Origin: Candidatus Saccharimonadales bacterium
Lineage (GTDB): Bacteria; Patescibacteriota; Saccharimonadia; Saccharimonadales; DASZAF01
Reading direction: 5' to 3'
NCBI GenBank assembly: GCA_035945435.1
Contig: DASZAF010000016.1
Location: 359 to 64,358, forward strand
DNA: 64,000 nt
The stretch's first letter is position 1. Each line of letters opens with the position of its first letter. A program made the position numbers and the translations under genes. Below the pieces are notes generated by a model that did no database searches, had not been told where the DNA came from, and was given only the letters and a program-made list of their open reading frames with translations. Positions 13,527-40,843 of the stretch are shown here, one piece after another.

Positions 13527-13535
13527 TGATATACT
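13527..13535 (+). promoter_or_regulatory. Extended -10 promoter (TGaTATACT) of the T4SS operon; near-leaderless
   Basis: TGATATACT ends 10 nt before the ATG at 13546, with no Shine-Dalgarno in between. Confidence 0.4.
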
Positions 13536-13545
13536 ACATTACATA

Positions 13546-16607: not shown

Positions 16608-16609
16608 TC

Positions 16610-17554: not shown

Positions 17555-17564
17555 GCCGAGTAGG

Positions 17565-18617: not shown

Positions 18618-20650
18618 TGGCACTCTTCGGCGGCAAGAAGGTAAACCCAGTCGAACTGGCTGAACAGCAGCGACTTCGTGAACAGAATGAGGTCGAACAA
18701 GCCTTCCTCAAAGGCGTCACCGAGCTACGAGACTTCATAGCGCCGAGCTCACTCGAACTCGAGTCCGGCTTCTTCCGACTCGGTACGTATTATGCCCGCA
18801 GCTTCTATGTGTATGGTTACCCGAGACAGATCTTCACTGGCTGGCTCTCCTCAATTATCAATATGGACGAAGAGATCGATGTCTCAATGTTCATCTATCC
18901 AGTCGAAAGCCGCGTCGTACTCGACAACCTTCGCAAGAAAGTATCCCAGCTTGAAGCCGACCTGCAGTTAAACGCCGAGAAAGGACGAGTCCGCGATCCA
19001 GGGACCCAGGCAGCCATCCAAGACGCCGAGGAACTTCGCGACAAGCTCCAAGTAGGCGAAGAACGCTTCTTCCGATTTGGTCTCTACTTCACTATCTACT
19101 CAACATCACTCGACGAGCTTAACTTTATCCAGCATAAAGTCGAGACGGTTCTTGGTCAGCAGCTGGTCTACTCAAAGCCGGCTACAGTTCAGATGGAACA
19201 GGGTTTCAATTCGACAATTCCACAAGGTCTTGATCAGCTTCAAGTCCGCCGGAATATGAACACCGGAGCCCTGAGTACCAGCTTCCCATTCACCAGTGCA
19301 GACCTCACCCAAGAGAATGGCATTCTTTATGGCATCAACATGCACAATAACGGATTGGTTATCTTTGACCGTTTCACTCTAGAAAACGCCAATATGGTCG
19401 TCTTTGCCAAGTCAGGTGCCGGTAAGTCGTTTACCGTTAAACTCGAGGCACTACGAAGTATGATGATGGGGACTGAAGTGATTATCGTTGACCCCGAAAA
19501 TGAGTATCAGCGCCTTAGCGAAGCAGTCGGTGGCTCGTATATCCGCCTCTCACTCAACTCCGATACCCGGATTAACCCGTTTGACCTGCCACTGGTTGTC
19601 GATAGCGAAGAGGCAGACAACGCACTACGCTCCAACCTCATTACGCTCCACGGCCTGTTACGACTCATGATGGGTGGCGCCACTGCGGCCGCCTCAACAG
19701 CTGGGGGATACAGTGTCTCCGCGATTGGCCCTGTTCTCAGCCCGGTAGAAGAGGCCGACCTAGACCAAGCCTTAATCGACACTTACGCGAGAGCCGGTAT
19801 CACTAACGATCCGCTGACGCACAACACCACCCCACCGACTGTTAATGACCTCTACGATACCTTACTCCACATGCCTGGTACCGGGCCGCAGTTGGCTCAG
19901 AGATTGCGAAAATACACCTCAGGAACATTTGCCGGTATCTTCTCGCAGCAATCAAATGTCGACATCTCAAACAAGCTGGTCGTCTTTAACATCCGTGATC
20001 TTGAAGACGAGCTTCGCCCCGTCGCTATGTACATCGTTCTTAACCACATCTGGAATCGTACCAAGACAGACCGCAAGAAGCGCATGCTGGTCATTGACGA
20101 AGCCTGGCAGTTGATGAAGTATGAGGACTCTGCTAACTTTATGTTCTCACTCGCCAAGCGCGCTCGCAAATACTTCCTCGGCCTGACAACCATCAGCCAA
20201 GACGTTGAAGACTTTATGAGCTCGAAGATGGGACGTGCTATTGTTGCGAATGCATCGATGCAGATTCTCCTCAAACAGTCACCAACAGCAGTCGACATCC
20301 TAGCTGCCGTCTTCAAGCTGACTGAGGAAGAGCAGAAGCGGCTATCTCAATTCCCAGTCGGTCAGGGTCTACTCTTTGCCGGTCAAAATCACGTTCACGT
20401 CCAGATTGTTGCCTCACCGACCGAAACCTCACTGATTACTACCAATCCGGCCCAAATACAGCAGCAGACGGTCAATATTGCGCACCCGGGCCCAGTCGCT
20501 CCGGGCGCTACCAATCCTCCTGTACCACCGCAGCCAGCTGAACCGCAGTTCACATCGCCTAACGACGAGGTTCCCCGCGAGCCTCTTGCGTCCGTTGAAG
20601 CCCAACAGGGGGGAACATTAGAAGTTAACGGAGGGGCAGGTAGACCGTAG
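18617..20650 (+). CDS. virB4: VirB4-family T4SS ATPase
   Basis: The N-domain is FRLGTYYARSFYVYGYPRQIFTGWLSSII...DVSMFIYP. Walker A is VVFAKSGAGKSFTVK and Walker B is MLVIDEAWQLM. TTISQDVEDF follows. Confidence 0.9.
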   Translation: MALFGGKKVNPVELAEQQRLREQNEVEQAFLKGVTELRDFIAPSSLELESGFFRLGTYYARSFYVYGYPRQIFTGWLSSIINMDEEIDVSMFIYPVESRVVLDNLRKKVSQLEADLQLNAEKGRVRDPGTQAAIQDAEELRDKLQVGEERFFRFGLYFTIYSTSLDELNFIQHKVETVLGQQLVYSKPATVQMEQGFNSTIPQGLDQLQVRRNMNTGALSTSFPFTSADLTQENGILYGINMHNNGLVIFDRFTLENANMVVFAKSGAGKSFTVKLEALRSMMMGTEVIIVDPENEYQRLSEAVGGSYIRLSLNSDTRINPFDLPLVVDSEEADNALRSNLITLHGLLRLMMGGATAAASTAGGYSVSAIGPVLSPVEEADLDQALIDTYARAGITNDPLTHNTTPPTVNDLYDTLLHMPGTGPQLAQRLRKYTSGTFAGIFSQQSNVDISNKLVVFNIRDLEDELRPVAMYIVLNHIWNRTKTDRKKRMLVIDEAWQLMKYEDSANFMFSLAKRARKYFLGLTTISQDVEDFMSSKMGRAIVANASMQILLKQSPTAVDILAAVFKLTEEEQKRLSQFPVGQGLLFAGQNHVHVQIVASPTETSLITTNPAQIQQQTVNIAHPGPVAPGATNPPVPPQPAEPQFTSPNDEVPREPLASVEAQQGGTLEVNGGAGRP

Positions 20651-26509: not shown

Positions 26510-27589
26510 TTATCCTAGGTTGATGGTCTGACCCAGTCTATTCTTGGGTATACTCCCTTCAATACCCGACTCCGGAGTAGTAATGATCGTCTGCCACGGC
26601 GTTAGGTGATGCGACAAGGCCTTACGTCGAGTCGCATCCAGTTCCCCAAAGACATCATCAAGTAGAAGAAGTGGTGGCCGTGAACTTACCTCGTATAGCA
26701 ATGTAGCTTCAACAATCTTGAGCATCACAACAAGGGTTCGCAACTCTCCTCGCGAGGCATTGAAGTGAGCAGGTGAACCATCGAGGTCAATTGTAAAATC
26801 GTCGCGGTGAGGGCCAACTGAGGTAAATCCTCTCTCCTGATCCTTGCTTAGATTTGTTTCCAATTGATGCAGGAAGGCAGAAGCTAGAGTGACAACATCC
26901 CCTTTAACCGCTGTCTGGTGGTGAAGTTGAACCTTTGACGCCTTGTGACTCAGCTGGCTGTAAGCATCACTTGCTAGCTTGTTTACTCTATCAATTAGAT
27001 CCTGACGTTCGTTCATAATATGAGCTCCTAGCTCGCTCAGACGCACGTTCCAGACAAAGAGTTGGTCTTGTGGAGCAATATGGTCGTAAATGTCTTTCAG
27101 GAGTCTGTTACGCTGCGCCAGTGACCGTTTGTAACGCGTCAAGATTCGCTCATAAGTGGGGGAGAGCTGAGTAAGTAGTACGTCTAGAAAGAGTCGACGC
27201 TGATCTGGGGAGCCCGTTAAGAGCTGCATGTCCCGGGGTTCAAAAAGAACAACCGGAATACGAGTGTTGACGTTTAGTCGTTTGCTGACATCATTGATCC
27301 GAAATTCCTTGGTAGTCGTCTCTTTCTGAGGATCACGACGGATACGCAGACTACGTTCAACTGCCTGCTCGTCATTCGTCGCCAGATGCAACCAATCGGC
27401 ATCATGATGTATAAGGTTACTATCCTGCACGCGAAACGAGCTTCCATAAGAAGTAACATAGAGAGCCTCAAGAAGGTTCGTCTTACCGCTACCGTTCGGG
27501 CCGACAACCATATTAACCCCATCACTTAGGTCGAATGTGGTGTCTTTATATGAGCGAAAGTTCTTAAGATGAATCTTTCTGTACATCAC
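26510..27589 (-). CDS. recF: DNA replication and repair protein RecF
   Basis: The sequence LKNFRSYKD...VVGPNGSGKTNLLEALY (Walker A) and the C-terminal LLLLDDVFGELD are present, in the conserved dnaA-dnaN-recF order. Confidence 0.9.
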   Translation of the reverse strand: MMYRKIHLKNFRSYKDTTFDLSDGVNMVVGPNGSGKTNLLEALYVTSYGSSFRVQDSNLIHHDADWLHLATNDEQAVERSLRIRRDPQKETTTKEFRINDVSKRLNVNTRIPVVLFEPRDMQLLTGSPDQRRLFLDVLLTQLSPTYERILTRYKRSLAQRNRLLKDIYDHIAPQDQLFVWNVRLSELGAHIMNERQDLIDRVNKLASDAYSQLSHKASKVQLHHQTAVKGDVVTLASAFLHQLETNLSKDQERGFTSVGPHRDDFTIDLDGSPAHFNASRGELRTLVVMLKIVEATLLYEVSSRPPLLLLDDVFGELDATRRKALSHHLTPWQTIITTPESGIEGSIPKNRLGQTINLG

Positions 27590-27625
27590 AAGCTATTATC
27601 GTTCACTTTAACCAGTGACACAAAA

Positions 27626-28720
27626 CTAGCTCTTTAACGGCATAACAATGTGCTTATAGTCGACCTGCTTCGTGGCAGCTGTCAGAACACACGGTGATAG
27701 CTTGCCGTTGAAGGCAAACTTGACGGATTTCTCATCAATACAGCCAAGTGCTTCAAGGACGTAGCGTGAGTTAAGTGTCAGCCGGCCACTTCCTGTTACT
27801 TCGGCTTCTATGTTGGCGTCGTTTTCGCCAACCTGCGAAGCAACCGAGTGGATACTGACCGTCTTGGTTGTTTCGTCCACTTCAATCGTAATACTGCCAC
27901 CGCTATCCCGAGCAAAGAGCGAGGCGATCTTGGTGATACGAACCAGCTCTTCCTTGTCCAGTACCGCAGAGGTCTCATTGGTATCAGGTATTAACTGGCG
28001 GTAATCCGGGAATGTGCCGTCAATCAAACGGCTGACAATATCGATTTCACCAATACGAATGCGAACCTGTGTCTCGTCAAACCAGAACTCAACCTCTTCA
28101 ATGTCATCCGTTAAGACTCTCAGAACTTCCTGTAGCGTGTCTGCCGGAATAATCGACTGAAGTTGGGCGGAGCTTTCCACCAGTTGTCGTTCCGCCAGGC
28201 GATAGCCGTCTGTAGCTGCAAAGTAGAGTTTCCCGTTGTGAGTATGTGCGTAGACACCAGTCAGTACCGGACGAGTGTCGTCGCCCGAAACCACTAGAAC
28301 GGTCTGCTGAATTGCTCGCTTGGTGATGTGGGCGGGGAGAGTGATCTTATTCTGGTTACTCACCGATGGCAGACTTGGAAACTCATCCGCCACCATACCG
28401 TTGATAGTAGCGTTGTAGTTAGTTGTCTTGACGTGTAGTTTATGTTGATCCGAGATTAGTTCAACATTACCTTTGGGAAGATTACTGACAAGTTCAGTCA
28501 TAAGACGAGCAGGAACTGTTAGCGACCCCTCTTCCTCAATCTTGCCTCCGACATATTCCGTAACTGCTAATTCCAGATTGGTAGCTGCAAGGAGAAGTCT
28601 GTTTTGTTCGGTCTTTAAAAGGACGTTATTTAAGATGGGCAGGGGAGTCTTGCCGGAAGCAATGCGAGCAACTACTGATAGTGCTTTGCTTAGATTCTCT
28701 TGTGTAACTTGAAGGCGCAT
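27626..28720 (-). CDS. dnaN: DNA polymerase III beta subunit (sliding clamp)
   Basis: 364 aa, MRLQVTQENLSKALSVVARIASGKTPLPILNNVLLKTEQNRLLLAATNLE..., located directly downstream of dnaA. Confidence 0.92.
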   Translation of the reverse strand: MRLQVTQENLSKALSVVARIASGKTPLPILNNVLLKTEQNRLLLAATNLELAVTEYVGGKIEEEGSLTVPARLMTELVSNLPKGNVELISDQHKLHVKTTNYNATINGMVADEFPSLPSVSNQNKITLPAHITKRAIQQTVLVVSGDDTRPVLTGVYAHTHNGKLYFAATDGYRLAERQLVESSAQLQSIIPADTLQEVLRVLTDDIEEVEFWFDETQVRIRIGEIDIVSRLIDGTFPDYRQLIPDTNETSAVLDKEELVRITKIASLFARDSGGSITIEVDETTKTVSIHSVASQVGENDANIEAEVTGSGRLTLNSRYVLEALGCIDEKSVKFAFNGKLSPCVLTAATKQVDYKHIVMPLKS

Positions 28721-28999
28721 CTTTATTGGCTGATTCCTTTCTTCCTATTGTTATTTATATAAGTAGTAGAAGTAATAGTAGGGGGTGTTGATAATGTGTA
28801 CAAACGGCTTTTCAACAGATAGAAAATTGTCTCAAGTGTTGTGAATAGTCTGCGTAAAATAGGTGCGCAACTTGATGTCAGTGGGGGAGAGAATGGGGAA
28901 TACCAGGCTGGTTTGATAGCGAGTGCTTCTACCTGTGTATAAGACCGATTTGTTTGCACATGACTAGACACAGTTGAAGACACAGTTTGTGCACAGCTC
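28721..28999. other. oriC segment in the dnaA-dnaN spacer: AT-rich stretch plus DnaA-box-like 9-mers
   Basis: TGTGTATAA (28934-28942) is a perfect TTATNCACA box on the complementary strand. TGTGAATAg (28840-28848) and TGTtGATAA (28786-28794) each match 8 of 9 positions. An AT-rich run lies at 28741-28780 (candidate unwinding element). Confidence 0.55.
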
Positions 29000-30352
29000 C
29001 TAGACATAGAGGTGCTCCCTTAGTTCTGCTACAATTTGTCGCATTGAATAATCAAGAGCGATAACTTTCTCAATCTTTTCAATGGAGTGAATGGCTGTGG
29101 TGTGGTCTTTTCTGCCAAGCTCACCGGCGATCTTCGGAAAACTTAAATGGAGTTCGCTTCGAAGTAGATACATGGCTACTTGTCTTGGTAAGACGATGTG
29201 TTTGTCGCGTTTAGGGCCAATCATATCGGCCACGGGGATCTGAAAGTGTTTGGCCGTCTTCTCTACGACCTGCTTTGAGGTCAACCTTTGTGGTCTGTTG
29301 CGGTGCGTACCGAGTAGACCACTTGCTACCTGTACATCAGGAGCGACGCCGCGCATCTCGCAATATGCCAGCAACTGATTAAGACCACCTTCAAGTTCAC
29401 GAATGTTGGTCTGGAAGTTAGTGGCTAGAAACTCAATCGTGTCTCGGTCGAGCGTTACGTTATGAGAGTTGGCCTTTGACTGCAGAATGGCGCACCGGGT
29501 CTCGTAATCGGGTGTCTGGATATCTATCGCCATCCCCCATTCGAACCGACTTCGAAGACGCTCCTCTAAAGTGGGGATCGACTTAGGGGGTTTATCTGAA
29601 CTGATGATGATCTGTTTGTTGGCCTGGTGGAGGGCGTTAAAGGTGTGGAAGAACTCTTCCTGAGTCTTCTCCTTGCCGGCAATAAACTGCATGTCATCAA
29701 CGATTAAGACATCGACGTTTCGGTAACGATCGGCAAAGCTTTTCTTCTTGAAGCGAATTGCTTCGAGGAATTCGTTAACAAAGGTTTCGGAAGATATGTA
29801 GGTGACATGTGCGTCTGGGTTCTGCTCAGCGATGCCATTACCGACGGCCTGGATAAGGTGTGTCTTGCCAAGCCCGACCCCGCCGTAAATAAAGAGCGGG
29901 TTGTACTTCATACCCGGGTCGCTAACGACTGCTTGGCAGGCAGCATAGGCTAGTTCGTTGCTCGAGCCGACTATAAAAGTGTCAAAGACGTAGCGAGGAT
30001 TAAGCCCGACAGCTCTACTGTTGGGCTTAGAGCCTGAGGCGAGCGAGTTGGTGGGCAGGGAAACGACATCCTGTCCGGCACGGCCTTCATTCTTCTTCGT
30101 GTTTTTGCTGGATCGTATCTCGTAGGTGATACTTTTTACTTTGACTTCGTTCTTCTCGAGACTCTCTTTTATCTGTTTGTTGTATTTGACCTCGAGCTGT
30201 CTTTTGGCAAAGATGTTCGGCACCTCAATGGTGATATTGCCATTAGCGTCATCAATCAGTTCGGTATTTTTAAACCACGTCGTGAAGTTAGCACGAGATA
30301 CTGCAAGCTCGATTTCACCGAGAACACTCTGCCAAGTGGCACTCTTCGCCAA
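29000..30352 (-). CDS. dnaA: Chromosomal replication initiator protein DnaA
   Basis: The AAA+ core reads NPLFIYGGVGLGKTHLIQAVG...DVLIVDDMQFIAGKEKTQEEFFHTFN. The C-terminal DNA-binding domain reads GRKDHTTAIHSIEKI. The start is TTG with a GAGGGAGG Shine-Dalgarno. Confidence 0.95.
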   Translation of the reverse strand: MAKSATWQSVLGEIELAVSRANFTTWFKNTELIDDANGNITIEVPNIFAKRQLEVKYNKQIKESLEKNEVKVKSITYEIRSSKNTKKNEGRAGQDVVSLPTNSLASGSKPNSRAVGLNPRYVFDTFIVGSSNELAYAACQAVVSDPGMKYNPLFIYGGVGLGKTHLIQAVGNGIAEQNPDAHVTYISSETFVNEFLEAIRFKKKSFADRYRNVDVLIVDDMQFIAGKEKTQEEFFHTFNALHQANKQIIISSDKPPKSIPTLEERLRSRFEWGMAIDIQTPDYETRCAILQSKANSHNVTLDRDTIEFLATNFQTNIRELEGGLNQLLAYCEMRGVAPDVQVASGLLGTHRNRPQRLTSKQVVEKTAKHFQIPVADMIGPKRDKHIVLPRQVAMYLLRSELHLSFPKIAGELGRKDHTTAIHSIEKIEKVIALDYSMRQIVAELREHLYV

Positions 30353-30584
30353 TTCCTAACCTCCCTCGTACGGTTTTGATAGTCCTACTAAAACTATACT
30401 CAATGAGCCGACTTTTCCACAATCTATTTTAGTTACAAAAAACGAACAGCTAAGATGTTCGTTTATACACAGCCTTCAATTCTCCCCTGTAAACATGTGG
30501 ATAAGCTCTTGTCTAATGTGGAAAAGTTGTTAAAATAAACGACAGCTTATTTCTCTTTAGACCAGAGACTGAAAGGATTAATAA
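30353..30584. other. oriC segment between dnaA and rpmH: cluster of four DnaA boxes
   Basis: TTTTCCACA (30413-30421) and TTATACACA (30463-30471) are on the plus strand. TGTGGATAA (30496-30504) is a perfect TTATCCACA on the complementary strand. TGTGGAAAA lies at 30517-30525. Confidence 0.65.
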
Positions 30585-30722
30585 ATGCCAAAACGAACGT
30601 ACCAGCCGAAGAAACGACATCGCTCTCGCGTGCATGGCTTTCGTGCTCGCATGGCTTCACGTGCCGGACGACTTGTCCTCAAGAGCAGGCGCCTTAAGGG
30701 CCGCAAACGACTCTCCCATTAG
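30585..30722 (+). CDS. rpmH: 50S ribosomal protein L34
   Basis: Not in the ORF track (45 aa). Translation is [45 protein letters not shown], the classic L34 sequence, located upstream of rnpA. Confidence 0.95.
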
Positions 30723-30757
30723 GTCGAGGACCTAATGTGTTTATACTGTAGGTAGCT

Positions 30758-31105
30758 ATGTTAGAAGCGAGCTACAGATTTCATGGTCGGCGTAGTCTTG
30801 GGTTTCTCTTTAATCGTGGCAAGACGGTTCGATATGATGGCTTGAGCCTCAAGTTCGTCTATAACTCCCGTAGTATCAACTCACGCTGTGCTGTAGTGGT
30901 CGGGAGGAAAGTCACGAAGAAAGCACCTGTTCGTAATCGGATCCGGCGGCGAATCTTTGAGATCATCAGGTTGGAGTGGGATCACATAAAGCGGCCGTAC
31001 GATATTGCTTTCTTTGTCTTTGATGAGAGGGTGGCCGATATTCCTTATGACGAACTTCACGACCAAGTCGTCTCACTCTTAAAATCTGCCAACTTATACA
31101 CCTAG
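30758..31105 (+). CDS. rnpA: Ribonuclease P protein component
   Basis: 115 aa with the RNR motif region KKAPVRNRIRRRIFE, in the conserved rpmH-rnpA-yidC order. Confidence 0.85.
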   Translation: MLEASYRFHGRRSLGFLFNRGKTVRYDGLSLKFVYNSRSINSRCAVVVGRKVTKKAPVRNRIRRRIFEIIRLEWDHIKRPYDIAFFVFDERVADIPYDELHDQVVSLLKSANLYT

Positions 31106-31176
31106 TAATTTGGAGCGATATAAAAGGCTCTCGCCGCTTCACAACAGAGAAGTAATTATGCTACAATATCTCTAAT

Positions 31177-32235
31177 ATGCAAGGCATTGTCTACTTCCTG
31201 TTATTTGTTATCGTCTTTATTCTGGGCGGTAAGTACATATTCCCCATACTTGGTCATGCGATAATCGGCCTCTATCACGTTATCATTTCTATTACCCTCA
31301 ATATTCTGGCTGCTATCTACGCCATAATGCCAGGGCACGACTTCGGCGTCACAATAATCGTCTTCACCGTTCTTATTCGCCTTCTCATGTGGCCGCTTCT
31401 TAAGAAACAGATGCATCAGACGAAAGTTATGCGCAAGATTCAGCCTGAACTCAAGCGTGTCAAAGAGAAGGCCAAGGGTGATAAGCAACTTGAAGGCAAG
31501 CTGATGATGGAGCTCTATAAAGAACGAGGGATCAACCCGTTTGGAACGGTGGGGGTACTTGTGCTCCAGTTGCCGATAATTCTCGCTGTCTATCAAGTAC
31601 TTCGTCTTATTAGCGGTAATCCTCATGAATTGGTTGCTAAATCATACAACTTTGTTCGTCACATCGGTTACATGAAGAACGTGTCATCTAACATTCACCT
31701 TTTCCACGAAACTCTCTTTGGGCGAATCGATCTAAGCGTCCATGCACTTGGTAGTAATGGCAAAGTCTATATTCCTCTCATGTTCATTGCGCTCTTGGCA
31801 GCCGTCTTCCAGTATTTCCAGTCCAAGCAACTTATGCCGGTCGCGAAGGACAGTAAGTCATTAAAGCAGATCTTTAAGGATGCTGGCAGTGGCTCATCCA
31901 TCTCCGACCAGTCCGACATGACTACCGCTATGAATGGCATGATGGTCAAAATCTTTCCGCTATTCACCTTCTTCTTCGCCATCAGTGTGCAGGGCGGTTT
32001 AGCGCTCTATCTTCTCACAACCACACTTGTTGGCTGGGCCCAACAGAGCTACTTACTCAGCCGAGATGAGGAAGAGATGGAAAAGTCGGTTGAAACCAAG
32101 ACGTCAGTCGTTGCACGGGCTGAAAAGGCGCAAGAGGCTGAAGTTGTGAAGACCACTCCAAAGAAGAAGACTAAGAAGAGTAGTAAGAGCGCCACGCATG
32201 TTAAACGCGGTAAGACCACTAAGAGGAAGGGGTAG
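31177..32235 (+). CDS. yidC: Membrane protein insertase YidC (short Gram-positive type)
   Basis: The sequence GVTIIVFTVLIRLLMWPLLKKQMHQTKVMRKIQPELKRVKEK...LMMELYKERGINPFG is present, with multiple TM helices and a lysine-rich C-tail. Confidence 0.9.
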   Translation: MQGIVYFLLFVIVFILGGKYIFPILGHAIIGLYHVIISITLNILAAIYAIMPGHDFGVTIIVFTVLIRLLMWPLLKKQMHQTKVMRKIQPELKRVKEKAKGDKQLEGKLMMELYKERGINPFGTVGVLVLQLPIILAVYQVLRLISGNPHELVAKSYNFVRHIGYMKNVSSNIHLFHETLFGRIDLSVHALGSNGKVYIPLMFIALLAAVFQYFQSKQLMPVAKDSKSLKQIFKDAGSGSSISDQSDMTTAMNGMMVKIFPLFTFFFAISVQGGLALYLLTTTLVGWAQQSYLLSRDEEEMEKSVETKTSVVARAEKAQEAEVVKTTPKKKTKKSSKSATHVKRGKTTKRKG

Positions 32236-32238
32236 GTT

Positions 32239-32763
32239 ATGAACCAGGACGAAGCCATTACATTTGCCAAACAGTACCTAGAAAACCTTCTGAGCTTCTT
32301 TGGTCTTAATACGTCTGTTAACACCAGCTGCGACGACGAAGTTATCGAACTACAGATTCCCTCAACCCACCTGAACGGTTTTCTAATCGGTCAACATGGT
32401 GATACACTACGCTCTCTGCAATATCTTGTCAGTATGGCACTCAAGAATTCAAACGCCTCAATAGACAGGGTCAACATTGATGTAGCCGACTACAAGAAGC
32501 ACCGCGCTGAGCGATTGGCTACCCAAGTGCAAGACTGGTCTGAGCAAGTTCGCAGCAGCAAGCAAAAGATGGAATTGCGTCCGATGAGTCCAGCGGACAG
32601 GCGAGTCGTTCATCAGACCGTCGGAGAGTATAGTGACCTCAAAACTGAATCTGTCGGTGAAGGCCGGGATAGACGAGTTGTTATTCATCCTGCCGACCAG
32701 ACTGATCAAAAAGAACCAGCAAGCGAAGAACCTACAACTGAGGCAGTTCCTGAGGAGGAGTAG
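32239..32763 (+). CDS. jag: Jag/KhpB-type RNA-binding protein (KH plus R3H domains)
   Basis: The R3H region is MELRPMSPADRRVVHQTVGEYSDLKTESVGEGRDRRVVIHP. The gene is downstream of yidC. Confidence 0.8.
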   Translation: MNQDEAITFAKQYLENLLSFFGLNTSVNTSCDDEVIELQIPSTHLNGFLIGQHGDTLRSLQYLVSMALKNSNASIDRVNIDVADYKKHRAERLATQVQDWSEQVRSSKQKMELRPMSPADRRVVHQTVGEYSDLKTESVGEGRDRRVVIHPADQTDQKEPASEEPTTEAVPEEE

Positions 32764-33862
32764 TCTCTTCCTTTGCGACTAAGGCGTTCTTGTAGACTTC
32801 CAACGTCTGCTTGGCCATCTTCTTCCAAGAGTACTTGTCGTGGACTTTCTTGCCGGCAACTCGAAGCTGGTCACGTATCTTCGGGTTGCTAATTACGTAG
32901 TCTATGGCTGCCACCATGTCGTTGAAGTTGTGGGGGTCAAAGTAGTATGCACCATCTCCATAAATTTCTGGCAGACAGGTCGTATTACTACTAACAACTG
33001 GTGCGCCGTCTCCCATTGCCTCAAGGGCCGGTAACCCAAAACCTTCCATAAATGAAGCCAGGACGTAGGCAAGGCAGTGTTTGTGGAGCCATGCGACTTG
33101 TTCGTCAGGAATGAAGTCGGTAAAGTGAATCTGTTTATAGCCGAGGTCTTTGGCCCACTCCATATCAGCTTGACGCTGCTTATCGATTTTGCCAACAATA
33201 ACGAGCCAGAGATCAGGGTGGGTTTTTAGTAATGCTTGATGGGCTTTGATCAGGCCTCGGTTGTTCTTGTATGGCTCCGCTCTACCTAGGTACATGATAA
33301 ATTTATGCTTAGCCATTTTGGAATATTGTTTTTGCTTACTCTTAGATAGGTCGGTGCCTTCATAGGTAACTGTGATCTTGCTCGAAGGTATACCACTAAA
33401 GTTGATCAGGTCGTTCTTGGTGTAAATGCTAGTGGCGATAATATGGGTGCTTCGTTTTGCGACTCGTTTGAGTAGATATGCAAAGACTCGCTGTTTTACA
33501 AAGAGCTCGATCTTGCTCATGTCATTTGCGGTTATTCTGAGCAGGTTCAGGTCATGAACGGTTGTTACAGAGTTACCTTTATATAGGAGCGGCTGTTGAG
33601 GCATACAGAAGTGAACGAGGTTTGGTCGAAGCTTACGAAGTAGTTTGTTAAAGCCGAGCTGTTCGGCAAAGCTGTAATCCGCAAAGTCGGCTTCGACAAT
33701 CTGAAAATTTGGCTTATGCGGCTTGTAATAGTTGAGATCCTTGCGCCTCACCAAGATAAGAAAAGTGTCTGCCGTATCGAGCTGCTCAAGATAGAAAAGC
33801 AGTCGTTCGATATATCTACCAGTACCTGTGCTAATAATTCGAGCGTCTATGGCAATACGCAT
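32732..33862 (-). CDS. Glycosyltransferase family 4 (GT-B)
   Basis: The C-terminal GT1/GT4 signature is ASFMEGFGLPALEAMGDGAPVVSSNTTCLPEIYGDGAYYFDP. Confidence 0.8.
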   Translation of the reverse strand: MRIAIDARIISTGTGRYIERLLFYLEQLDTADTFLILVRRKDLNYYKPHKPNFQIVEADFADYSFAEQLGFNKLLRKLRPNLVHFCMPQQPLLYKGNSVTTVHDLNLLRITANDMSKIELFVKQRVFAYLLKRVAKRSTHIIATSIYTKNDLINFSGIPSSKITVTYEGTDLSKSKQKQYSKMAKHKFIMYLGRAEPYKNNRGLIKAHQALLKTHPDLWLVIVGKIDKQRQADMEWAKDLGYKQIHFTDFIPDEQVAWLHKHCLAYVLASFMEGFGLPALEAMGDGAPVVSSNTTCLPEIYGDGAYYFDPHNFNDMVAAIDYVISNPKIRDQLRVAGKKVHDKYSWKKMAKQTLEVYKNALVAKEETTPPQELPQL

Positions 33863-33925
33863 CAGACGGATACCTTATACATAGGCATAGTATATAATAC
33901 TCGTCGCCTTGTCTTGGAAAGGATG

Positions 33926-33939
33926 GTGACGTGCGTCAC
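33926..33939. promoter_or_regulatory. GTGA-N6-TCAC inverted repeat upstream of cyoA (CRP/FNR- or Rex-type operator candidate)
   Basis: The sequence gGTGACGTGCGTCACa has perfect 6-bp arms (GTGACG/CGTCAC). Its centre at 33932.5 is about 41.5 nt upstream of the start site predicted from the -10 at 33962-33967. Confidence 0.35.
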
Positions 33940-33958
33940 ACGACCCCCTTTAGAGCTG

Positions 33959-33967
33959 TGCTATAGT
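33959..33967 (+). promoter_or_regulatory. Extended -10 promoter (TGcTATAGT) of the cyo operon
   Basis: TGCTATAGT ends 14 nt before the cyoA ATG at 33982, with no Shine-Dalgarno in between. Confidence 0.4.
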
Positions 33968-33981
33968 GACTAATAACGGTT

Positions 33982-34926
33982 ATGGCAAAATCAAACGGGA
34001 GTCACACAAGAAAGGGCCTGAAATTACTGCTAATCACAGCCCTGATTGTCGTTGTCGTCTCTGCTCTCGCCTGGTATCTAGATCATCATACTGTTGCGGT
34101 TTTGCAGCCTGCAGGAGAAGTTGCCCGAAGAGAACGGGAGCTCATGATTATCGCCATCCTTCTTTCCGTTATCGTAGTAGTGCCAGTCTATATTATGGCA
34201 ATCTCCTTTGCCTGGCGATACCGCGAGGACAACCGAAAGATCAAAACTCGCAAGTACCAGCCAGATTGGGATCGTAGCCGCGTTTACGAGACTCTTTGGT
34301 GGGGTATCCCGATTATTATCATCGGCGCCCTCTCAGTTATAACCTGGGAAAGCTCTCACGCCCTTGATCCCTTCAAACCGCTGAGTTCTTCGGTGCCGGC
34401 CATACCTGTTGATGTTGTTGCACTCGACTGGAAGTGGCTATTTATCTATCCGAAGCAGCATATTGCCTCTGTAAACTTGCTTGAAATACCTAGCAATGTA
34501 CCAATTGACTTTGATGTTACCTCTGATACCGTTATGAACTCTTTCTGGATTCCGCGGCTCGGCGGGCAGATCTACGCCATGCCAGGTATGTCGACCCAAC
34601 TACACCTCATAGCTAACGAGACCGGGAGCTACTATGGTTCATCCGCGAATATTTCCGGCGTCGGCTTTGCGGGCATGAACTTCACAACTAAGTCGGTTAG
34701 CTGGTCGGACTTTAACGCTTGGGTGAAAAGAGCTCAAGCATCATCGAAGGTTTTAACGTCGGAGGCGTATAGCAAACTTGCTGAACCTAGCCAGAATAAC
34801 AAGGCCACCTACTACTCAGATGTCCCAAATAATTTGTATGATGATACTGTCATGAAATATATGTCGCCTCTTGATATGCCGACAATGCCTGCATCAGCCT
34901 CATCAACGGGGATGTACATGCAATGA
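33982..34926 (+). CDS. cyoA: Cytochrome bo3-type quinol oxidase subunit II
   Basis: SDTVMNSFWIPRLGGQIYAMPGMSTQLHLIANETGSYYGSSANISGVGFAGMNF aligns with CyoA. The CuA Cys/His ligands are absent, which indicates the quinol-oxidase type. Two N-terminal TM helices are present. Confidence 0.88.
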   Translation: MAKSNGSHTRKGLKLLLITALIVVVVSALAWYLDHHTVAVLQPAGEVARRERELMIIAILLSVIVVVPVYIMAISFAWRYREDNRKIKTRKYQPDWDRSRVYETLWWGIPIIIIGALSVITWESSHALDPFKPLSSSVPAIPVDVVALDWKWLFIYPKQHIASVNLLEIPSNVPIDFDVTSDTVMNSFWIPRLGGQIYAMPGMSTQLHLIANETGSYYGSSANISGVGFAGMNFTTKSVSWSDFNAWVKRAQASSKVLTSEAYSKLAEPSQNNKATYYSDVPNNLYDDTVMKYMSPLDMPTMPASASSTGMYMQ

Positions 34927-36935
34927 ACTGGCACATACTGACACTCTTCGGTGGTCTACTCGGCAAGCTCAACCTTAACCAGATACCACGCGATCCGATT
35001 ACTTTCGGTGCGGCCGCTTCTATTGTCGGTGGCTCGATCCTAGTCGTTATCTTGCTTACCTACTTCAAGAAATGGAAGTGGCTGTGGAATGAGTGGTTGA
35101 CGACGACGGACCATAAGAAGATTGGCACGATGTACCTAATAGTAGCTGGCCTGATGCTCGCACGGGGAGGTGTCGATGCTGTCATGATGCGCCTTCAGCA
35201 GGCAACGTCAGTGGGGGCCTCACACGGGATTATGTCTTCGAATATGTTCCAACAGGTCTTTTCTGCGCACGGTACAATCATGATCTTCTTCGTTGGTATG
35301 GGTTTCCTCTTCGGCATCGTCAATCTGGTTCTGCCTTTGCAGATAGGCTCACGTGATGTTGCTTTTCCCTTTATGAATGCCACAAGTTTCTGGCTCTTTG
35401 CAGCGGGCATGGTTTTGATCAACGTCTCGCTGGTTATCGGCTCATTCTCGGGAGCAGGTTGGCTAGCTTATCCGCCACTTAGTGAGTTAAAATTCAGCCC
35501 TGGCGTCGGCGTTGATTACTGGATATGGAGTCTGGAGATTGCCGGTGTTGGTAGCCTGCTTAGTGGTATCAACTTTATGACTACCATATTTAAGATGCGG
35601 GCACCGGGCATGACATTTAGAAGACTCCCGATGTTCGTCTGGAGTGTCATGGGGACTATGACACTTGTTATTTTTGCCTTTCCAATTCTAACTGTCACCT
35701 TGACCCTCCTATTTCTCGATAGAGCACTTGGGATGCATTTCTTTACAGCTGGTGGTGGAGGCAACGCCATGATGTATGTCAATCTCATCTGGGCCTGGGG
35801 GCATCCGGAGGTTTACATATTAGTTCTACCCGCCTTCGGAATCTATTCGGAAGTAGTGGCCACTTTCTCTAGGAAGCGACTTTTCGGGTATACCTCTATG
35901 GTCTGGGCAATCTGGGCAATCGTTCTCCTCTCGTTCTGCGTCTGGCTGCACCATTTCTTTACCATGGGCGCGGGTGCAGACGTTAACGCCGTCTTTGGTA
36001 TTGCTACTATGCTGATTGCGGTACCGACTGGTGTGAAGATCTTCAATTGGCTCTTCACAATGTATAGAGGAAGGATCCACTTTGCTTCACCGATGATTTG
36101 GTTTATGGGATTTGTCTTTCTCTTTACCATGGGCGGAGTGGCCGGAGTCCTTATGGCGGTGCCTCCGATCGACTTTCAGGTCCACAACAGTCTCTTCTTG
36201 GTTGCTCACTTTCATACCATGATTGTCAGTGGTGTGCTGTTTGGCTACTTTGCCGGCCTGACTTATTGGTTTCCTAAGTATTTCGGCTTCAAGTTGAATG
36301 AACGACTCGGTAAGTATGCGGCCTGGTGCTGGATAATCGGCTTTGTTTTGGCCTTCGGCCCGCTGTATATTCTCGGGCTTATGGGAGCGACACGACGCCT
36401 CGATCACTACGCGCTTTCAACGGGCTGGCAGCCCTTGTTCATAGTTGCGGGAATCGGCGTGGCTATTATCTGTCTAGGTGGTGCCTTTCAAGTCCTGCAG
36501 TTAATTGTCAGCTTCTTCCAGCGAGGGACGCACAAGGATCTAAGTGGTGACCCATGGAATGGTCGCACACTTGAGTGGTCAACACCTTCGCCCGTTCCCT
36601 TTTATAACTTTGCACTTATCCCAAATGTAACGGATAGAGATGCTTTCTGGGCTATGAAGCAGGCCAAGAAAGGGAAAGGCGAGGGGAACGAACCACCGTA
36701 TCGGCCGATACACGTGATGAAGAATACCCCGGCAGGCCTATTCATTGCCGCCTTTGCGTTTGCCGTTGGCTTCGGCGCTGTCTGGCATAGCTGGCTTCTT
36801 GTGGCGGCGGGCCTTATCGGTCTGGCCTTAACGATGATTATTCGTCTGAGCAACGATAGTATTGAGCGGACTGTCTCAGTGGCAGAGATCAAGCGCGTCG
36901 AGGCTAGCTATGTGGTTGAAGGAGAGAGTGTATGA
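34923..36935 (+). CDS. cyoB: Cytochrome bo3-type quinol oxidase subunit I (heme-copper oxidase)
   Basis: 670 aa, polytopic. The sequence contains HKKIGTMYLIVAGLMLARGG..., WAWGHPEVYILVLPAFG and HHFFTMG motifs. Confidence 0.93.
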   Translation: MNWHILTLFGGLLGKLNLNQIPRDPITFGAAASIVGGSILVVILLTYFKKWKWLWNEWLTTTDHKKIGTMYLIVAGLMLARGGVDAVMMRLQQATSVGASHGIMSSNMFQQVFSAHGTIMIFFVGMGFLFGIVNLVLPLQIGSRDVAFPFMNATSFWLFAAGMVLINVSLVIGSFSGAGWLAYPPLSELKFSPGVGVDYWIWSLEIAGVGSLLSGINFMTTIFKMRAPGMTFRRLPMFVWSVMGTMTLVIFAFPILTVTLTLLFLDRALGMHFFTAGGGGNAMMYVNLIWAWGHPEVYILVLPAFGIYSEVVATFSRKRLFGYTSMVWAIWAIVLLSFCVWLHHFFTMGAGADVNAVFGIATMLIAVPTGVKIFNWLFTMYRGRIHFASPMIWFMGFVFLFTMGGVAGVLMAVPPIDFQVHNSLFLVAHFHTMIVSGVLFGYFAGLTYWFPKYFGFKLNERLGKYAAWCWIIGFVLAFGPLYILGLMGATRRLDHYALSTGWQPLFIVAGIGVAIICLGGAFQVLQLIVSFFQRGTHKDLSGDPWNGRTLEWSTPSPVPFYNFALIPNVTDRDAFWAMKQAKKGKGEGNEPPYRPIHVMKNTPAGLFIAAFAFAVGFGAVWHSWLLVAAGLIGLALTMIIRLSNDSIERTVSVAEIKRVEASYVVEGESV

Positions 36936-37549
36936 GTGAAAGTGCTGCCACCATGGCTGTCGAGCAGTTGAATACCCGTGAAGAGCACCAGGAGGCGGAC
37001 TCACGCGCGACCTTCGGCTTCTGGGTCTATATCATGACCGACTGTGTCCTCTTTGCCAGCCTCTTTGCTGCCTTTGCCGTTCTGCGTAATAACACGTACG
37101 GCGGTCCTCCAGGCGGTCTATTATTCAGTCTCCCCTACATCTTGACGGAAACACTCGCCCTGTTAACTAGTAGCTTCACATGCGGACTAGGTATACTTGC
37201 CGCCAACCAAAAGAAGAAAAATCTGACCCTCTTCTGGTTTGGAGTTACCTTCCTGCTGGGCGCCTTCTTTGTTGGGCTTGAGCTACATGAGTTTGCCAAA
37301 CTGGTCCATGATGGTGACAGTTGGCGTCGAAGCGGCTTTCTCTCATCCTACTTTACGCTGGTGGCTACTCATGGCCTCCATGTGTCGATGGGCTTGCTCT
37401 GGATGATCGTCATGGGATTTCAGGTGGCTACCCGCGGGCTCGTCCGTTCGACAGTTCGTCGCCTGACATTGCTGAGCATGTTCTGGCACTTCTTGGATAT
37501 TGTCTGGATCTTCATCTTTACGATCGTGTATCTGCTGGGGGCCCTCTAA
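36932..37549 (+). CDS. cyoC: Cytochrome bo3-type quinol oxidase subunit III
   Basis: 205 aa with five TM helices. FGFWVYIMTDCVLFASLFA...HFLDIVWIFIF is typical of CyoC. Confidence 0.85.
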   Translation: MSESAATMAVEQLNTREEHQEADSRATFGFWVYIMTDCVLFASLFAAFAVLRNNTYGGPPGGLLFSLPYILTETLALLTSSFTCGLGILAANQKKKNLTLFWFGVTFLLGAFFVGLELHEFAKLVHDGDSWRRSGFLSSYFTLVATHGLHVSMGLLWMIVMGFQVATRGLVRSTVRRLTLLSMFWHFLDIVWIFIFTIVYLLGAL

Positions 37550-37550
37550 T

Positions 37551-37952
37551 ATGGATGAACAGAAACCACAACTTTTTAAGAAAGAACGTGCTACTTACCG
37601 GGGGAGTCTGGCTCTCTATGTAACCGGATTTATCTCGTCAGTTGTCTGTACTCTGGTGGCCTATATGCTGGTCTGGATCCACGTCAACTCGGGTCACGAA
37701 ACCTTCACTCATCCGTTCATCATCACCTGTATTGTTGCCTTGGCGCTCGTTCAGTTCTTCGTTCAACTCTACTTCTTCTTGCATCTTGGCCACGAAACCA
37801 AGCCTCGTTGGAAACTGTTGGTTCTTGCCTTCATGATATTGGTTGTTTTCATCTTGGTCTTTGGCAGCCTCTGGATCATGCACAATCTTAACTACAGAAT
37901 GACCCCTCAGCAGATGAATACGTATATGATCAACCAGAACGGCGGCCTATGA
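37551..37952 (+). CDS. cyoD: Cytochrome bo3-type quinol oxidase subunit IV
   Basis: The ATG at 37551 (MDEQKPQLF...) lies directly after the cyoC stop. The track start at 37500 is inside cyoC. Three TM helices are present, with the LALVQFFVQLYFFLHL motif. Confidence 0.8.
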   Translation: MDEQKPQLFKKERATYRGSLALYVTGFISSVVCTLVAYMLVWIHVNSGHETFTHPFIITCIVALALVQFFVQLYFFLHLGHETKPRWKLLVLAFMILVVFILVFGSLWIMHNLNYRMTPQQMNTYMINQNGGL

Positions 37953-38803
37953 GTCTACTCAAGGACTACTACGAGCTAGCCAAGCCAGAGCGAACCTATG
38001 CCAACATTATGACGGCTGGAGCAGGGTTCTTGCTGGCCTCTAGATGGCATATCAACTGGGCGCTACTAGTCTACCTACTGGTTGGTACGTCGCTAGTTAT
38101 CGGTTCAGCCTGTGTCGTCAATAACTACATTGACCGAGAGATAGACAAGAAGATGGCTCGGACAAAGAAGCGCCCGCTAGCTGTTGGTCGGATACCACTT
38201 TGGAACGCCATAACCTATGCCGTTATTCTTGGTGTTGTTGGCTTTGGCATCTTGGCTCTCTATGTCAACTGGCTGGTTGTTGCGATGGGGGTCATAGCCT
38301 ATATAGACTACGTTGTCCTATACGGCATTGCCAAGCGAAAATCAACCTACGGAACGATTGTCGGCAGTGTCTCTGGCTCTATGTCGATGGCAGCGGGTTA
38401 TGTGGCAGTCAGCGGTCGGATCGATGGAGCAGCAGTCTTACTATTTGCCATTATGACCCTCTGGCAGATGCCTCACTTTTACTCAATTGCCATGTACCGC
38501 CTCAAAGACTACACGGCGGCGGGGATCCCGGTTCTTCCGAGTAAAATCGGCATGCGGAATACTAAGATACGAATTATCTTGTATATCATTGCGTTCATGG
38601 TGGCCTCCATGCTTCTGACTGCGTTCGGCTATGCCAACGATATCTATTTCACTATCGCTGCGGCCGTCAGCGTCTATTGGCTTTGGCAGGGGTTGCAGAC
38701 TTTTGAGGCTGCCAAGGACGAACCTTGGGCTCGAAAGATGTTCTTCACCTCGCTAACAGTTTTGACTGTCCTCTGTCTAGGGATAGCCATAGGGTCAATC
38801 TAG
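37949..38803 (+). CDS. cyoE: Heme O synthase (protoheme IX farnesyltransferase)
   Basis: UbiA-family motif NNYIDREIDKKMARTKKRPLA in a polytopic protein, located downstream of cyoD. Confidence 0.88.
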   Translation: MSLLKDYYELAKPERTYANIMTAGAGFLLASRWHINWALLVYLLVGTSLVIGSACVVNNYIDREIDKKMARTKKRPLAVGRIPLWNAITYAVILGVVGFGILALYVNWLVVAMGVIAYIDYVVLYGIAKRKSTYGTIVGSVSGSMSMAAGYVAVSGRIDGAAVLLFAIMTLWQMPHFYSIAMYRLKDYTAAGIPVLPSKIGMRNTKIRIILYIIAFMVASMLLTAFGYANDIYFTIAAAVSVYWLWQGLQTFEAAKDEPWARKMFFTSLTVLTVLCLGIAIGSI

Positions 38804-38812
38804 ACTATAATA

Positions 38813-39622
38813 GTGTCAGTGAAAAAACTCATGCAACGCTACAGGTATTCGGTGATCCTGTTACGCGAATTAGTCGTGACTGACTTCAAGCTTCGCTATC
38901 AAGGATCATTTCTTGGTTATCTCTGGACGCTTGTCAAACCGCTGGCCATCTTTATTATCATGTACACCGTCTTCGTACGGTTCTTAAAGTTTAACTTCCA
39001 CGTTCCACACACTGCAGTCTATCTCTTTATCGGAATTGTCCTGTGGGGTTTCTTTACGGAAGTTACTACCGGCTGTACGACATCCATCTTTGGGCAAGGA
39101 GAGCTGCTTCGGAGCATTCACTTCCCACGTTACGTGATCGTCATGGCTGTCTCCATCAACGCCCTCATCAACCTGCTCTTTAACTTTGTAGTGGTGGCCA
39201 TCTTCATGATTGTTAGCAAAGACGCCATCTCCCTGCATATCTTGATGGCCCTACCGCTCTTACTTGAGCTGTATGTTCTTGGCCTGGCTATTGGCTTTAT
39301 TCTAGCTACTCTCTATGTCCGCCTCCGTGACGTTAACTATATCTGGGAAGTTGCTCTCCAAGCCCTCTTTTATGCCATCCCCATTCTCTATCCAATTGCT
39401 CGAGTCCCTGAGAAATGGGCTAAGTGGTTGCTGTTGAATCCAGGCGCACAGATCATCCAGGGAGCACGCTACTATATCGTCACAACCAAGAGCCCGACGA
39501 TCGATAACTACTGGAGTAGCCCCTTTATTCGCCTAGCCCCAGTCATGTTAGTTATCCTCATTGCGATTTTCGCTGGGCTCTACTTTAAGAAGCGATCAAA
39601 ATACTTTGCGGAGGAAGTCTAG
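38813..39622 (+). CDS. wzm: ABC-2 type polysaccharide/teichoic-acid export permease (Wzm/TagG-like)
   Basis: LVVTDFKLRYQGSFLGYLWTLVKPLAIFIIMYTVF plus six TM helices. The start is ambiguous (GTG 38813, GTG 38819 or ATG 38831). Confidence 0.85.
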   Translation: MSVKKLMQRYRYSVILLRELVVTDFKLRYQGSFLGYLWTLVKPLAIFIIMYTVFVRFLKFNFHVPHTAVYLFIGIVLWGFFTEVTTGCTTSIFGQGELLRSIHFPRYVIVMAVSINALINLLFNFVVVAIFMIVSKDAISLHILMALPLLLELYVLGLAIGFILATLYVRLRDVNYIWEVALQALFYAIPILYPIARVPEKWAKWLLLNPGAQIIQGARYYIVTTKSPTIDNYWSSPFIRLAPVMLVILIAIFAGLYFKKRSKYFAEEV

Positions 39623-40843
39623 ATGGACGATCAAAGCAAACCACCAGTCGTTGTTAAGGTTGATCGAGTCTCCAAGAACTTTGCTCTGCCGCATGAGCAG
39701 GCCAACTCAACAAAGATGCTCTTCACCCATATATTTAACAGCCGTGCTTTTCGCCGGACTGAAGTACAGCATGCCCTCAAAGACGTCTCGTTTGAAGTTC
39801 GGAAAGGTGAGTTCTTTGGAGTGGTGGGTCGTAATGGTAGCGGTAAGAGCACTCTCTTGAAGATGATGGCCGGCATCTACCAGCCAACCTCAGGCAGCAT
39901 TACAACGACTGGAAAACTGGTGCCATTTATCGAACTTGGTGTCGGCTTCAACGGTGAGCTAACTGGACGCGAGAACGTCTTTCTCAACGGTGCCTTACTC
40001 GGCTTTTCGCGTAAGCAGACAGAGTCTCATTACAAAGAGATTGTCGAATTTGCTGAGCTCGAGAAGTTCATGGATCAGAAGTTGAAGAACTACTCGTCAG
40101 GAATGAAGGTACGCCTGGCCTTCGCCTGCGCAACGATGTCTCAGGCCGATATTTTGGTAGTCGACGAGGTCCTAGCCGTCGGGGATGCCGACTTCCAGCG
40201 CAAATGTTTTGACTACTTCAAACAGATCAAACGGGGAGATACTACAGTTATCTTTGTTAGCCATGACATGAATGCTATCAAAGAGTTCTGTGATCGCGCA
40301 GTCCTGATTGAGAAAAGTAAACTCGAATATGAAGGTGATCCGAAGGATATTGCCCGTGAGTACGCAATGCTCTTCATGGAAAACTACAAGGGCTTTGTCG
40401 GCCAAGGTGACAACAAACGGTGGGGCAACGGAGACGCAGTCGTCAAAGATGTCACTCTCACGCAACATGGCGATGAGATCATCGTCTCAGCTGACGTTCT
40501 GGCCCGCAAAAATCTCGACAGCATTATCTACGGCATTCATGTTTTCTCAGCCGACGGCCGAGAATTAACAGCGATGAATAATAGGATGATTAATCTGCCC
40601 GATATAAGCGATATTAAGGCCAAGAGCCGCTTTAAGATTACCTGGAAGATGCTCAACATTTTCAATGACGGCAACTATTCTATGACACTTGTGCTTGGTG
40701 ACTCTGCCAATAATATTCTCGATTGGTACAACGAGGCTGCGACCTTTACGATCAAGCGTGCCGAGCGTTCGACGACTCCTATAATGCCACCAGTAAGCGC
40801 CAAGGTCACTAAAAAAGAGGCGACCGCCGCAAAGAGTCATTGA
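39623..40843 (+). CDS. wzt: ABC polysaccharide exporter ATP-binding protein (Wzt/TagH-like) with a C-terminal beta-sandwich-like extension
   Basis: Walker A is GVVGRNGSGKSTLLK, the signature is YSSGMKVRLAFA and Walker B is ILVVDEVLAVGD. About 160 extra C-terminal residues follow (GDAVVKDVTLTQHGDEI...NEAATFTIK). Confidence 0.88.
   Translation: MDDQSKPPVVVKVDRVSKNFALPHEQANSTKMLFTHIFNSRAFRRTEVQHALKDVSFEVRKGEFFGVVGRNGSGKSTLLKMMAGIYQPTSGSITTTGKLVPFIELGVGFNGELTGRENVFLNGALLGFSRKQTESHYKEIVEFAELEKFMDQKLKNYSSGMKVRLAFACATMSQADILVVDEVLAVGDADFQRKCFDYFKQIKRGDTTVIFVSHDMNAIKEFCDRAVLIEKSKLEYEGDPKDIAREYAMLFMENYKGFVGQGDNKRWGNGDAVVKDVTLTQHGDEIIVSADVLARKNLDSIIYGIHVFSADGRELTAMNNRMINLPDISDIKAKSRFKITWKMLNIFNDGNYSMTLVLGDSANNILDWYNEAATFTIKRAERSTTPIMPPVSAKVTKKEATAAKSH

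Follow-up and report, generated by a model that had tools for sequence, protein, structure and literature searches.

A complete cyoABCDE operon, encoding the four subunits of a bo3-like quinol oxidase (CyoABCD) and the heme O synthase CyoE, was identified in a 64-kb stretch of DNA from a Candidatus Saccharimonadales bacterium (64,000 nucleotides of contig DASZAF010000016.1, hereafter the window). The operon was intact, its subunit I belonged to a CyoB lineage specific to Saccharibacteria, and it was inserted, relative to syntenic loci of relatives, between a GT4 glycosyltransferase gene and the glycan exporter gene wzm, close to the presumed replication origin. The explanation that we favor, with a probability of about 0.85, is that an environmental Saccharimonadales genome carries here an intact A1-type quinol oxidase operon of this lineage, which was moved within, or transferred between, Saccharibacteria into the GT4-wzm slot.

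An intact cyoABCDE operon with conserved catalytic residues

The gene coordinates were set from a list of open reading frames (ORFs) and a reading of the gene junctions, and the families were assigned with Pfam and the equivalog models of NCBIfam. The following genes were obtained.

33982-34926, + strand: cyoA, quinol oxidase subunit II, 314 aa (TIGR01433, score 279.6 against a cut-off of 266.2; Pfam COX2 and COX_ARM)
34923-36935, + strand: cyoB, subunit I, 670 aa (Pfam COX1; match to E. coli CyoB at E = 3.6e-252)
36932-37549, + strand: cyoC, subunit III, 205 aa (TIGR02842, score 248.8 against a cut-off of 223.75; Pfam COX3)
37551-37952, + strand: cyoD, subunit IV, 133 aa (TIGR02847, score 86.2 against a cut-off of 81.45; Pfam COX4_pro)
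37949-38803, + strand: cyoE, heme O synthase, 284 aa (NF003348, score 330.2 against a cut-off of 285; Pfam UbiA)

The five co-directional genes contained no internal stop, all five families were assigned, and the description of the operon as complete and intact in an earlier note on this DNA was thereby confirmed, its coordinates being exact. The same note had proposed translational coupling through ATGA and GTGA overlaps, and this was borne out for the first kind alone. ATGA overlaps were found at three junctions (cyoA/cyoB, cyoB/cyoC and cyoD/cyoE), while cyoC and cyoD were separated by a 1-nt spacer (TAA-T-ATG); the GTGA detail was wrong because no such overlap occurred at any cyo junction. 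For cyoD, the TTG start at 37500 in the mechanically produced ORF was rejected as too long, and the ATG one base past the cyoC stop was taken instead. Among the NCBIfam models tried on CyoB, the CyoB model scored 997.3 (cut-off 1020.35), QoxB 800 and CtaD 558. CyoE carried the Asp-rich motif of the UbiA type, NNYIDREID.

The features of subunits I and II supported the prediction of an A1-type heme-copper oxidase of the quinol type rather than the cytochrome c type. CyoA matched E. coli CyoA (1FFT chain B) at E = 7.6e-78 and possessed the C-terminal COX_ARM domain (PF06481, E = 1.4e-15). It contained no Cys at all, therefore the two-Cys binuclear CuA center cannot form, in agreement with the earlier statement that the CuA ligands are lacking. 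Residues 13-663 of CyoB aligned to residues 2-650 of E. coli CyoB, including transmembrane helix 0 (TM0), and the alignment to the solved bo3 enzyme was gapless across the quinol site at about 58% identity. With functional residues assigned according to PMC10037687, three of the four quinol-site residues of E. coli (R71, D75, H98 and Q101) were kept, namely R81, D85 and Q111 as the equivalents of R71, D75 and Q101, and the position of H98 was occupied by Met108 (codon 35244-35246). Quinol as the expected substrate, which had been proposed from the missing CuA ligands, was thus supported by the absence of CuA together with COX_ARM, TM0 and these three residues. As for the type of heme, cyoE was present above its cut-off and no ctaA was found within the window.

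The residues needed for oxygen reduction and proton transfer were all retained in CyoB. The ligands of heme b (H116 and H431), of heme o3 (H429) and of CuB (H294, H343 and H344) were present, as were the cross-linked Tyr (Y298), the D-channel residues D145 and E296 in the motif WGHPEVY (E. coli D135 and E286, GHPEV), and the K-channel residues K372 and T369 (E. coli K362 and T359). In the 120 closest CyoB homologues, the six His ligands and the Tyr were invariant (120/120); the catalytic and channel residues as a whole, and likewise the equivalents of R71, D75 and Q101, did not change save for one substitution of T359, and only the H98 position varied. Such invariance is the pattern expected of a functional enzyme under purifying selection.

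Genomic position and clade of the operon

The Saccharibacteria-like context recognized in the earlier note was corroborated, as identical CyoB and YidC sequences are labelled Candidatus Saccharimonadales in NCBI. The window also carried a type IV secretion system (T4SS) of Saccharibacteria type and an oriC block, both syntenic with relatives, and a large glycan locus. The features around the operon were as follows.

26510-32763: recF-dnaN-dnaA (- strand), then rpmH-rnpA-yidC-jag (+ strand), the oriC-proximal block used as anchor of the synteny comparison
32732-33862, - strand: GT4 glycosyltransferase gene, left border of the operon, with an ortholog behind jag in relatives
33863-33981, no strand assigned: divergent intergenic region of 119 bp between the GT4 gene and cyoA, the presumed cyo promoter region, with a TATAAT-like element, GTATATAAT
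38813-39622, + strand: wzm, glycan ABC exporter, right border of the operon
39623-40843, + strand: wzt, glycan ABC exporter

The operon thus lay between a GT4 gene and Wzm/Wzt as previously described. For comparison, the oriC regions of relatives were collected via YidC and DnaA, which yielded 86 loci with DnaA 64-79% identical to that of the window. The order recF-dnaN-dnaA, rnpA-yidC-jag, GT4 on the minus strand and, further on, wzm-wzt was widely conserved among these loci, and the GT4 ortholog of three of them (L083, L085 and L087) stood at the same position with 47% identity. The stretch from jag to wzm was spanned by 32 loci, none of which contained cyo genes or any cyo remnant. What lay between GT4 and wzm was variable: some loci had no gene there, others up to several genes for glycosyltransferases, epimerases or NUDIX proteins, and jag and wzm were 1229 to 8860 bp apart. 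The corresponding distance in the window, 6050 bp, is the sum of 1228 bp and the cyo block of 4822 bp, so that the window corresponded to the shortest arrangement among the relatives (L153) with cyo added. Conversely, the flanks of the window were not matched around the other 80 cyo loci, which were obtained by a CyoB scan of one genome per species of GTDB, and no match came from scanning metagenomes with Wzm. The inference of the earlier note that the position suggests insertion or acquisition was therefore upheld for insertion, as none of the 32 slots holds cyo, and was not upheld for recent foreign acquisition, for the reasons of phylogeny and composition given below.

The minimum of the cumulative GC (guanine plus cytosine) skew was located at about 26-28 kb, adjoining dnaN and dnaA, and the operon therefore lies 3.6-8.5 kb from the presumed origin. 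It lies 3.6 kb from dnaA and is co-oriented with replication. Downstream, the gap between cyoE and wzm measured only 9 nt and contained no terminator-like site, which makes read-through from cyo into wzm-wzt likely. The scans for promoters and terminators returned matches no better than those in shuffled sequence. A promoter-like TAGCCA-16-TATAAT was seen over the last cyoE codons before wzm (38784-38831), again no better than chance in shuffles, and GTG 38813 and ATG 38831 were both candidate starts of wzm. A promoter of its own may thus have been kept by wzm in the terminal part of the inserted cyo block.

The phylogenetic affiliation of CyoB was evaluated with distance-based trees. The closest sequences showed 70-77% identity and were nearly all from Saccharibacteria, no relative closer than 77% being found in the databases searched, and those of the 80 loci with identities of at least 64% were almost all Saccharibacteria. 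The next tier was formed by Chlamydiae and other members of the candidate phyla radiation (CPR) at 59-63% (Chlamydiae 61-63%), followed by Gammaproteobacteria at 57-60%. In the neighbor-joining tree, the CyoB of the window nested deep in the Saccharibacteria clade, and in 100 of 100 bootstraps its immediate clade was made up entirely of sequences from the main group, most of which are labelled Saccharibacteria (minimum 4, median 12). This nesting test replaced the exact recovery of one 34-taxon Saccharibacteria clade, which reached 21% neighbor-joining bootstrap and was abandoned as a measure of support. The composition of the cyo genes was also that of their surroundings: GC was 0.496 compared with 0.497 ± 0.026 for the rest of the window, GC at third codon positions was 0.586 compared with 0.550 ± 0.037, and the synonymous-codon likelihood was within 0.5 standard deviations of the rest. 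A CyoB phylogeny to identify a donor lineage and a comparison of GC and codon usage had been suggested, and neither gave a sign of recent transfer across phyla. Recent acquisition across phyla was not supported because CyoB nests in Saccharibacteria and the composition matches the window. An ancient lateral origin, which Nicolas et al. (PMC8407418) inferred for the cyo operons of CPR with Proteobacteria or Chlamydiae as the source, is compatible with the present results.

Six loci with a Saccharibacteria-typical cyo (L007, L011, L012, L020, L030 and L033) were labelled Dormiibacterota, Binatia, Nevskiaceae, Paceibacterota or Actinomycetes. The metagenome-assembled genome (MAG) labelled Nevskiaceae also yielded a typical Saccharibacteria YidC. 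These odd labels are probably taxonomy errors in bulk MAG submissions.

Several other features of the window were recorded. The T4SS block (10845-25738) included five tandem pilin paralogues (10845-13472, - strand) and, near them, PrgI, a VirB4/TraG-like ATPase, a 950-aa protein without family match and a CHAP/beta-lactamase-like hydrolase; its position directly upstream of recF-dnaN-dnaA was kept in L083, L085 and L087. A small unlisted gene for ribosomal protein L34 (rpmH) was located within 30353-30757, between dnaA and rnpA as in L084, and the classic origin-proximal cluster rpmH-rnpA-yidC-jag is therefore complete. At the left end (1-8935), the genes of a low-GC block had a GC of 0.39-0.45 compared with about 0.50 elsewhere. 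This block contained a DUF4236/phrog_17982 protein, three ORFs without family match and a large serine integrase (7275-8924, phrog_95) that abuts tRNA-Arg(gcg) (8859-8935, - strand), and it probably represents a mobile element, or the remnant of a prophage, integrated at this tRNA gene.

Electron supply and the quinol site

The usual surroundings of cyo were revealed by clustering and annotating the ORFs of 37 other Saccharibacteria cyo loci, with partners sought within 10 kb. A recurrent order was observed: a MIP channel, UvrD, an NDH-2-like flavoprotein, an FAD-linked oxidase, cyoABCDE, a 91-aa membrane protein, a two-component system and Crp/FNR. Ten loci represented this cluster (L003, L007, L013, L014, L025, L027, L028, L029, L031 and L034). 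The frequencies of the partners near cyo were as follows.

FAD-linked oxidase (FAD_binding_4 and FAD-oxidase_C; GlcD-like or YdiJ-N-like): 18 of 37 loci
91-aa membrane protein (no Pfam match): 12 of 37 loci
NDH-2-like flavoprotein (Pyr_redox_2): 10 of 37 loci
Crp/FNR regulator (cNMP_binding and HTH_Crp_2): 9 of 37 loci
Polyprenyl synthase (polyprenyl_synt), abutting cyoA or cyoE: 4 of 37 loci (L012, L025, L030 and L037)

This neighborhood agrees with the literature, in which an NDH adjoining cyo was reported for RAAC3 (PMC3812714) and an "associated oxidoreductase" was mentioned elsewhere (PMC8407418). The FAD-linked oxidase is possibly a second electron-input enzyme, for a D-2-hydroxyacid or D-lactate, and the polyprenyl diphosphate synthase could be a source of farnesyl diphosphate for heme O or of the quinone side chain. 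For these usual partners (FAD-linked oxidase, NDH-2-like protein, Crp/FNR and others), no tblastn match was obtained in the window, and its GT4/wzm flanks were shared by none of the 37 loci. As far as the 64-kb window shows, the oxidase genes are here separated from their usual electron-input neighbors.

The quinol site was compared between 156 CyoB sequences of the Saccharibacteria clade and 45 outgroup sequences from Chlamydiae, other CPR and Proteobacteria. In the clade, the H98 position was occupied by Thr in 72 sequences, His in 53, Met in 22, Gln in 8 and Leu in 1, that is, a residue other than His in about two thirds (103/156), while the outgroup had His throughout (45/45). An equivalent His is also present in all three solved quinol oxidases, E. 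coli bo3, A. baumannii bo3 and B. subtilis aa3-600. In the structural literature, H98 belongs to a D75-R71-H98 hydrogen-bond network round the quinone head group, and an H98-E14 proton relay was proposed from structure (PMC13022660). At the E14 position, the His group had Asp in 46 of 53 sequences and the non-His group had Asp 28, Pro 24, Glu 19 and Asn 13, a loss of constraint, with the association of the two columns confounded by shared ancestry. Several of the columns most strongly associated with the H98 state were in TM0 or near residues 93-95.

Eleven of the cyo loci were recorded as encoding a non-His CyoB (L001, L003, L014, L017, L021, L022, L024, L025, L027, L028 and L033). In five of them (L003, L014, L025, L027 and L028) the NDH-2-like gene adjoins cyo, and a quinol donor is therefore still the most likely reading for the non-His oxidases. 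"Discrepancies in functional residues" were mentioned, unspecified, by Starr et al. (PMC6031116), and no published description of the H98 replacement pattern was found in a limited literature search; the pattern may be a new lead. A lineage-specific replacement of this His, with invariant catalytic residues, bears on which quinone is used by quinone-auxotrophic cells.

Competing explanations and comparison with known systems

Four observations weigh against the explanation given at the outset. CyoB fell 23 bits below its NCBIfam equivalog cut-off, yet the Cyo model was still the best by about 200 bits over QoxB. Besides cyo, no dehydrogenase, quinone, heme or copper-chaperone gene was found within the 64-kb window, so any electron donor is putative. 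The Met in place of the canonical H98 could weaken or alter quinol oxidation, an effect judged from structural papers on other enzymes (PMC13022660 and PMC10037687). Finally, direct or inverted repeats, insertion sequences and integrases sought at the operon borders gave short chance matches only, which leaves the mode of movement unmarked. The same lack of scars speaks against a foreign island recently acquired from another phylum such as Proteobacteria or Chlamydiae. An island of this kind would account for the empty slot in 32 relatives, and the ancient lateral origin in the literature and the nearest CyoB outside CPR (Chlamydiae, then Gammaproteobacteria) would accord with it; the nesting of CyoB in all bootstraps and the native GC, third-position GC and codon usage make it very improbable. 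It is just as hard to maintain that there was no insertion at all, cyo being ancestral at this site near oriC and missing from every sampled relative through loss. Genes are indeed lost from the GT4-wzm slot, whose content varies among relatives, but many independent losses and a relocation as well would be needed, since no slot-spanning locus keeps even a remnant, and the 37 other cyo loci lack these flanks and in many cases share the NDH-2-like/FAD oxidase/cyo neighborhood. An artefact of assembly or binning, in which a chimeric contig joins Saccharibacteria DNA to a foreign cyo, deserved consideration because the source is a MAG and the arrangement is known from a single contig. Two precise joins would be required, at the 119-bp and 9-bp gaps, and the identical CyoB also occurs in an independent Logan assembly source. 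With both flanks in native Saccharibacteria order, uniform codon usage and CyoB itself in the Saccharibacteria clade, a chimera is very unlikely and close to negligible.

The role of the enzyme is a separate matter. According to one interpretation, offered originally for RAAC3 (PMC3812714) and repeated in PMC12592800, the oxidase is mainly a scavenger or detoxifier of O2, and the detachment from NDH-2 together with the loss of His98 would then reflect a low-flux protective role. The lack of a dehydrogenase in the window and the substituted quinol-site His fit this interpretation, whereas the strictly conserved D- and K-channel residues and E296 are what would be expected of a proton-pumping enzyme, the cyo genes of relatives stand beside an NDH-2-like gene even where CyoB lacks the His, and co-occurrence with an F-type ATPase was reported (PMC8407418 and PMC12592800). 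We regard a mainly protective role as possible, though not the likelier case; O2 scavenging and energy-conserving respiration are not mutually exclusive. More speculative, and in our view doubtful, is the idea that the members of a large His98-less Saccharibacteria subclade (Thr, Met or Gln, with E14 relaxed) have a donor site remodelled for quinones of the host membrane or for an altered proton exit, and that the operon, uncoupled here from the NDH-2-like gene, heads a glycan-export operon and ties the reduction of O2 to the biogenesis of the envelope at the interface with the host.

On the favored explanation, the operon would have reached the variable GT4-wzm slot of the oriC-proximal glycan locus by relocation or by transfer from another Saccharibacterium, and would therefore be detached from its usual NDH-2-like and FAD-oxidase neighbors; it would probably be co-transcribed with wzm-wzt. 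Heme B, presumably scavenged and imported, would be farnesylated by CyoE to heme O. A membrane quinol, likewise predicted to be scavenged, would be oxidized at the TM0/TM1/TM2 site of subunit I (R81, D85 and Q111, with Met108 for the usual His), and electrons would pass via low-spin heme b (H116/H431) to the heme o3-CuB center (H429; H294, H343 and H344; Y298), where O2 would be reduced to water with proton uptake through the intact D- and K-channels. Whether in respiration or in O2 removal, this putative activity is read from the conserved residues.

The Saccharibacteria cyo operon and the question of its quinone and heme sources are already well documented (2013, 2018, 2021 and 2024). The complete operon of RAAC3 was described as an O2 scavenger fed by the adjacent NDH-2 (Kantor 2013, PMC3812714), scavenging of quinone and heme was proposed for T. 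rhizospherense (Starr 2018, PMC6031116), a cyo phylogeny of soil CPR followed (Nicolas 2021, PMC8407418), and in 2025 cyo was mapped to particular Saccharimonadales families (PMC12592800). The earlier note, which spoke of similar oxidases in a few environmental members, understated their frequency, since the operon is present in more than 50% of the genomes of environmental Saccharibacteria (PMC8406219 and PMC11659515). The genomic case for the use or removal of O2 by some "fermentative" CPR episymbionts is based mainly on the cyo operon, and one more confirmed intact example by itself changes little. Two features are specific to this instance, namely the relocation into a slot of the oriC-proximal glycan locus, apart from the NDH-2-like and FAD-oxidase genes, and the membership in the His98-less subclade. 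The relocation is clean and datable, which makes it useful for the question whether cyo is moved inside a Saccharibacterium or from one to another.

Compared with cytochrome bo3 of E. coli, the gene order cyoA-B-C-D-E was the same, CyoB aligned end to end with TM0 (about 57-60% identity to gammaproteobacterial CyoB), and the heme, CuB, Tyr and D- and K-channel residues, R71, D75, Q101 and a subunit II with COX_ARM and without CuA were shared. Differently, H98 is Met and E14 is Asp in the window, CyoA lacks the lipobox Cys, CyoD has 133 aa, and the operon stands in a glycan locus near oriC of a host thought, from the literature, to lack ubiquinone and heme synthesis. The aa3-600 oxidase QoxABCD of B. 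subtilis (PDB 6KOB) is likewise a quinol-oxidizing A-type enzyme with TM0, and CyoB matched it over the full length at E = 3.7e-205 and over the N-terminal 169 residues at E = 7e-51. However, the QoxA, QoxB, QoxC and QoxD models scored well below the Cyo models on the proteins of the window, and the B. subtilis enzyme keeps His at the H98 position, has Glu at the Q101 position and uses heme A, while the window is without ctaA. The closest likeness was to the known Saccharibacteria cyo operons (PMC3812714, PMC6031116 and PMC8407418), with which the five-gene operon, the phylum, the CyoB clade (70-77% identity) and the question of quinone and heme supply are shared; those operons typically lie beside NDH-2 and an oxidoreductase, whereas the present one lies between GT4 and wzm.

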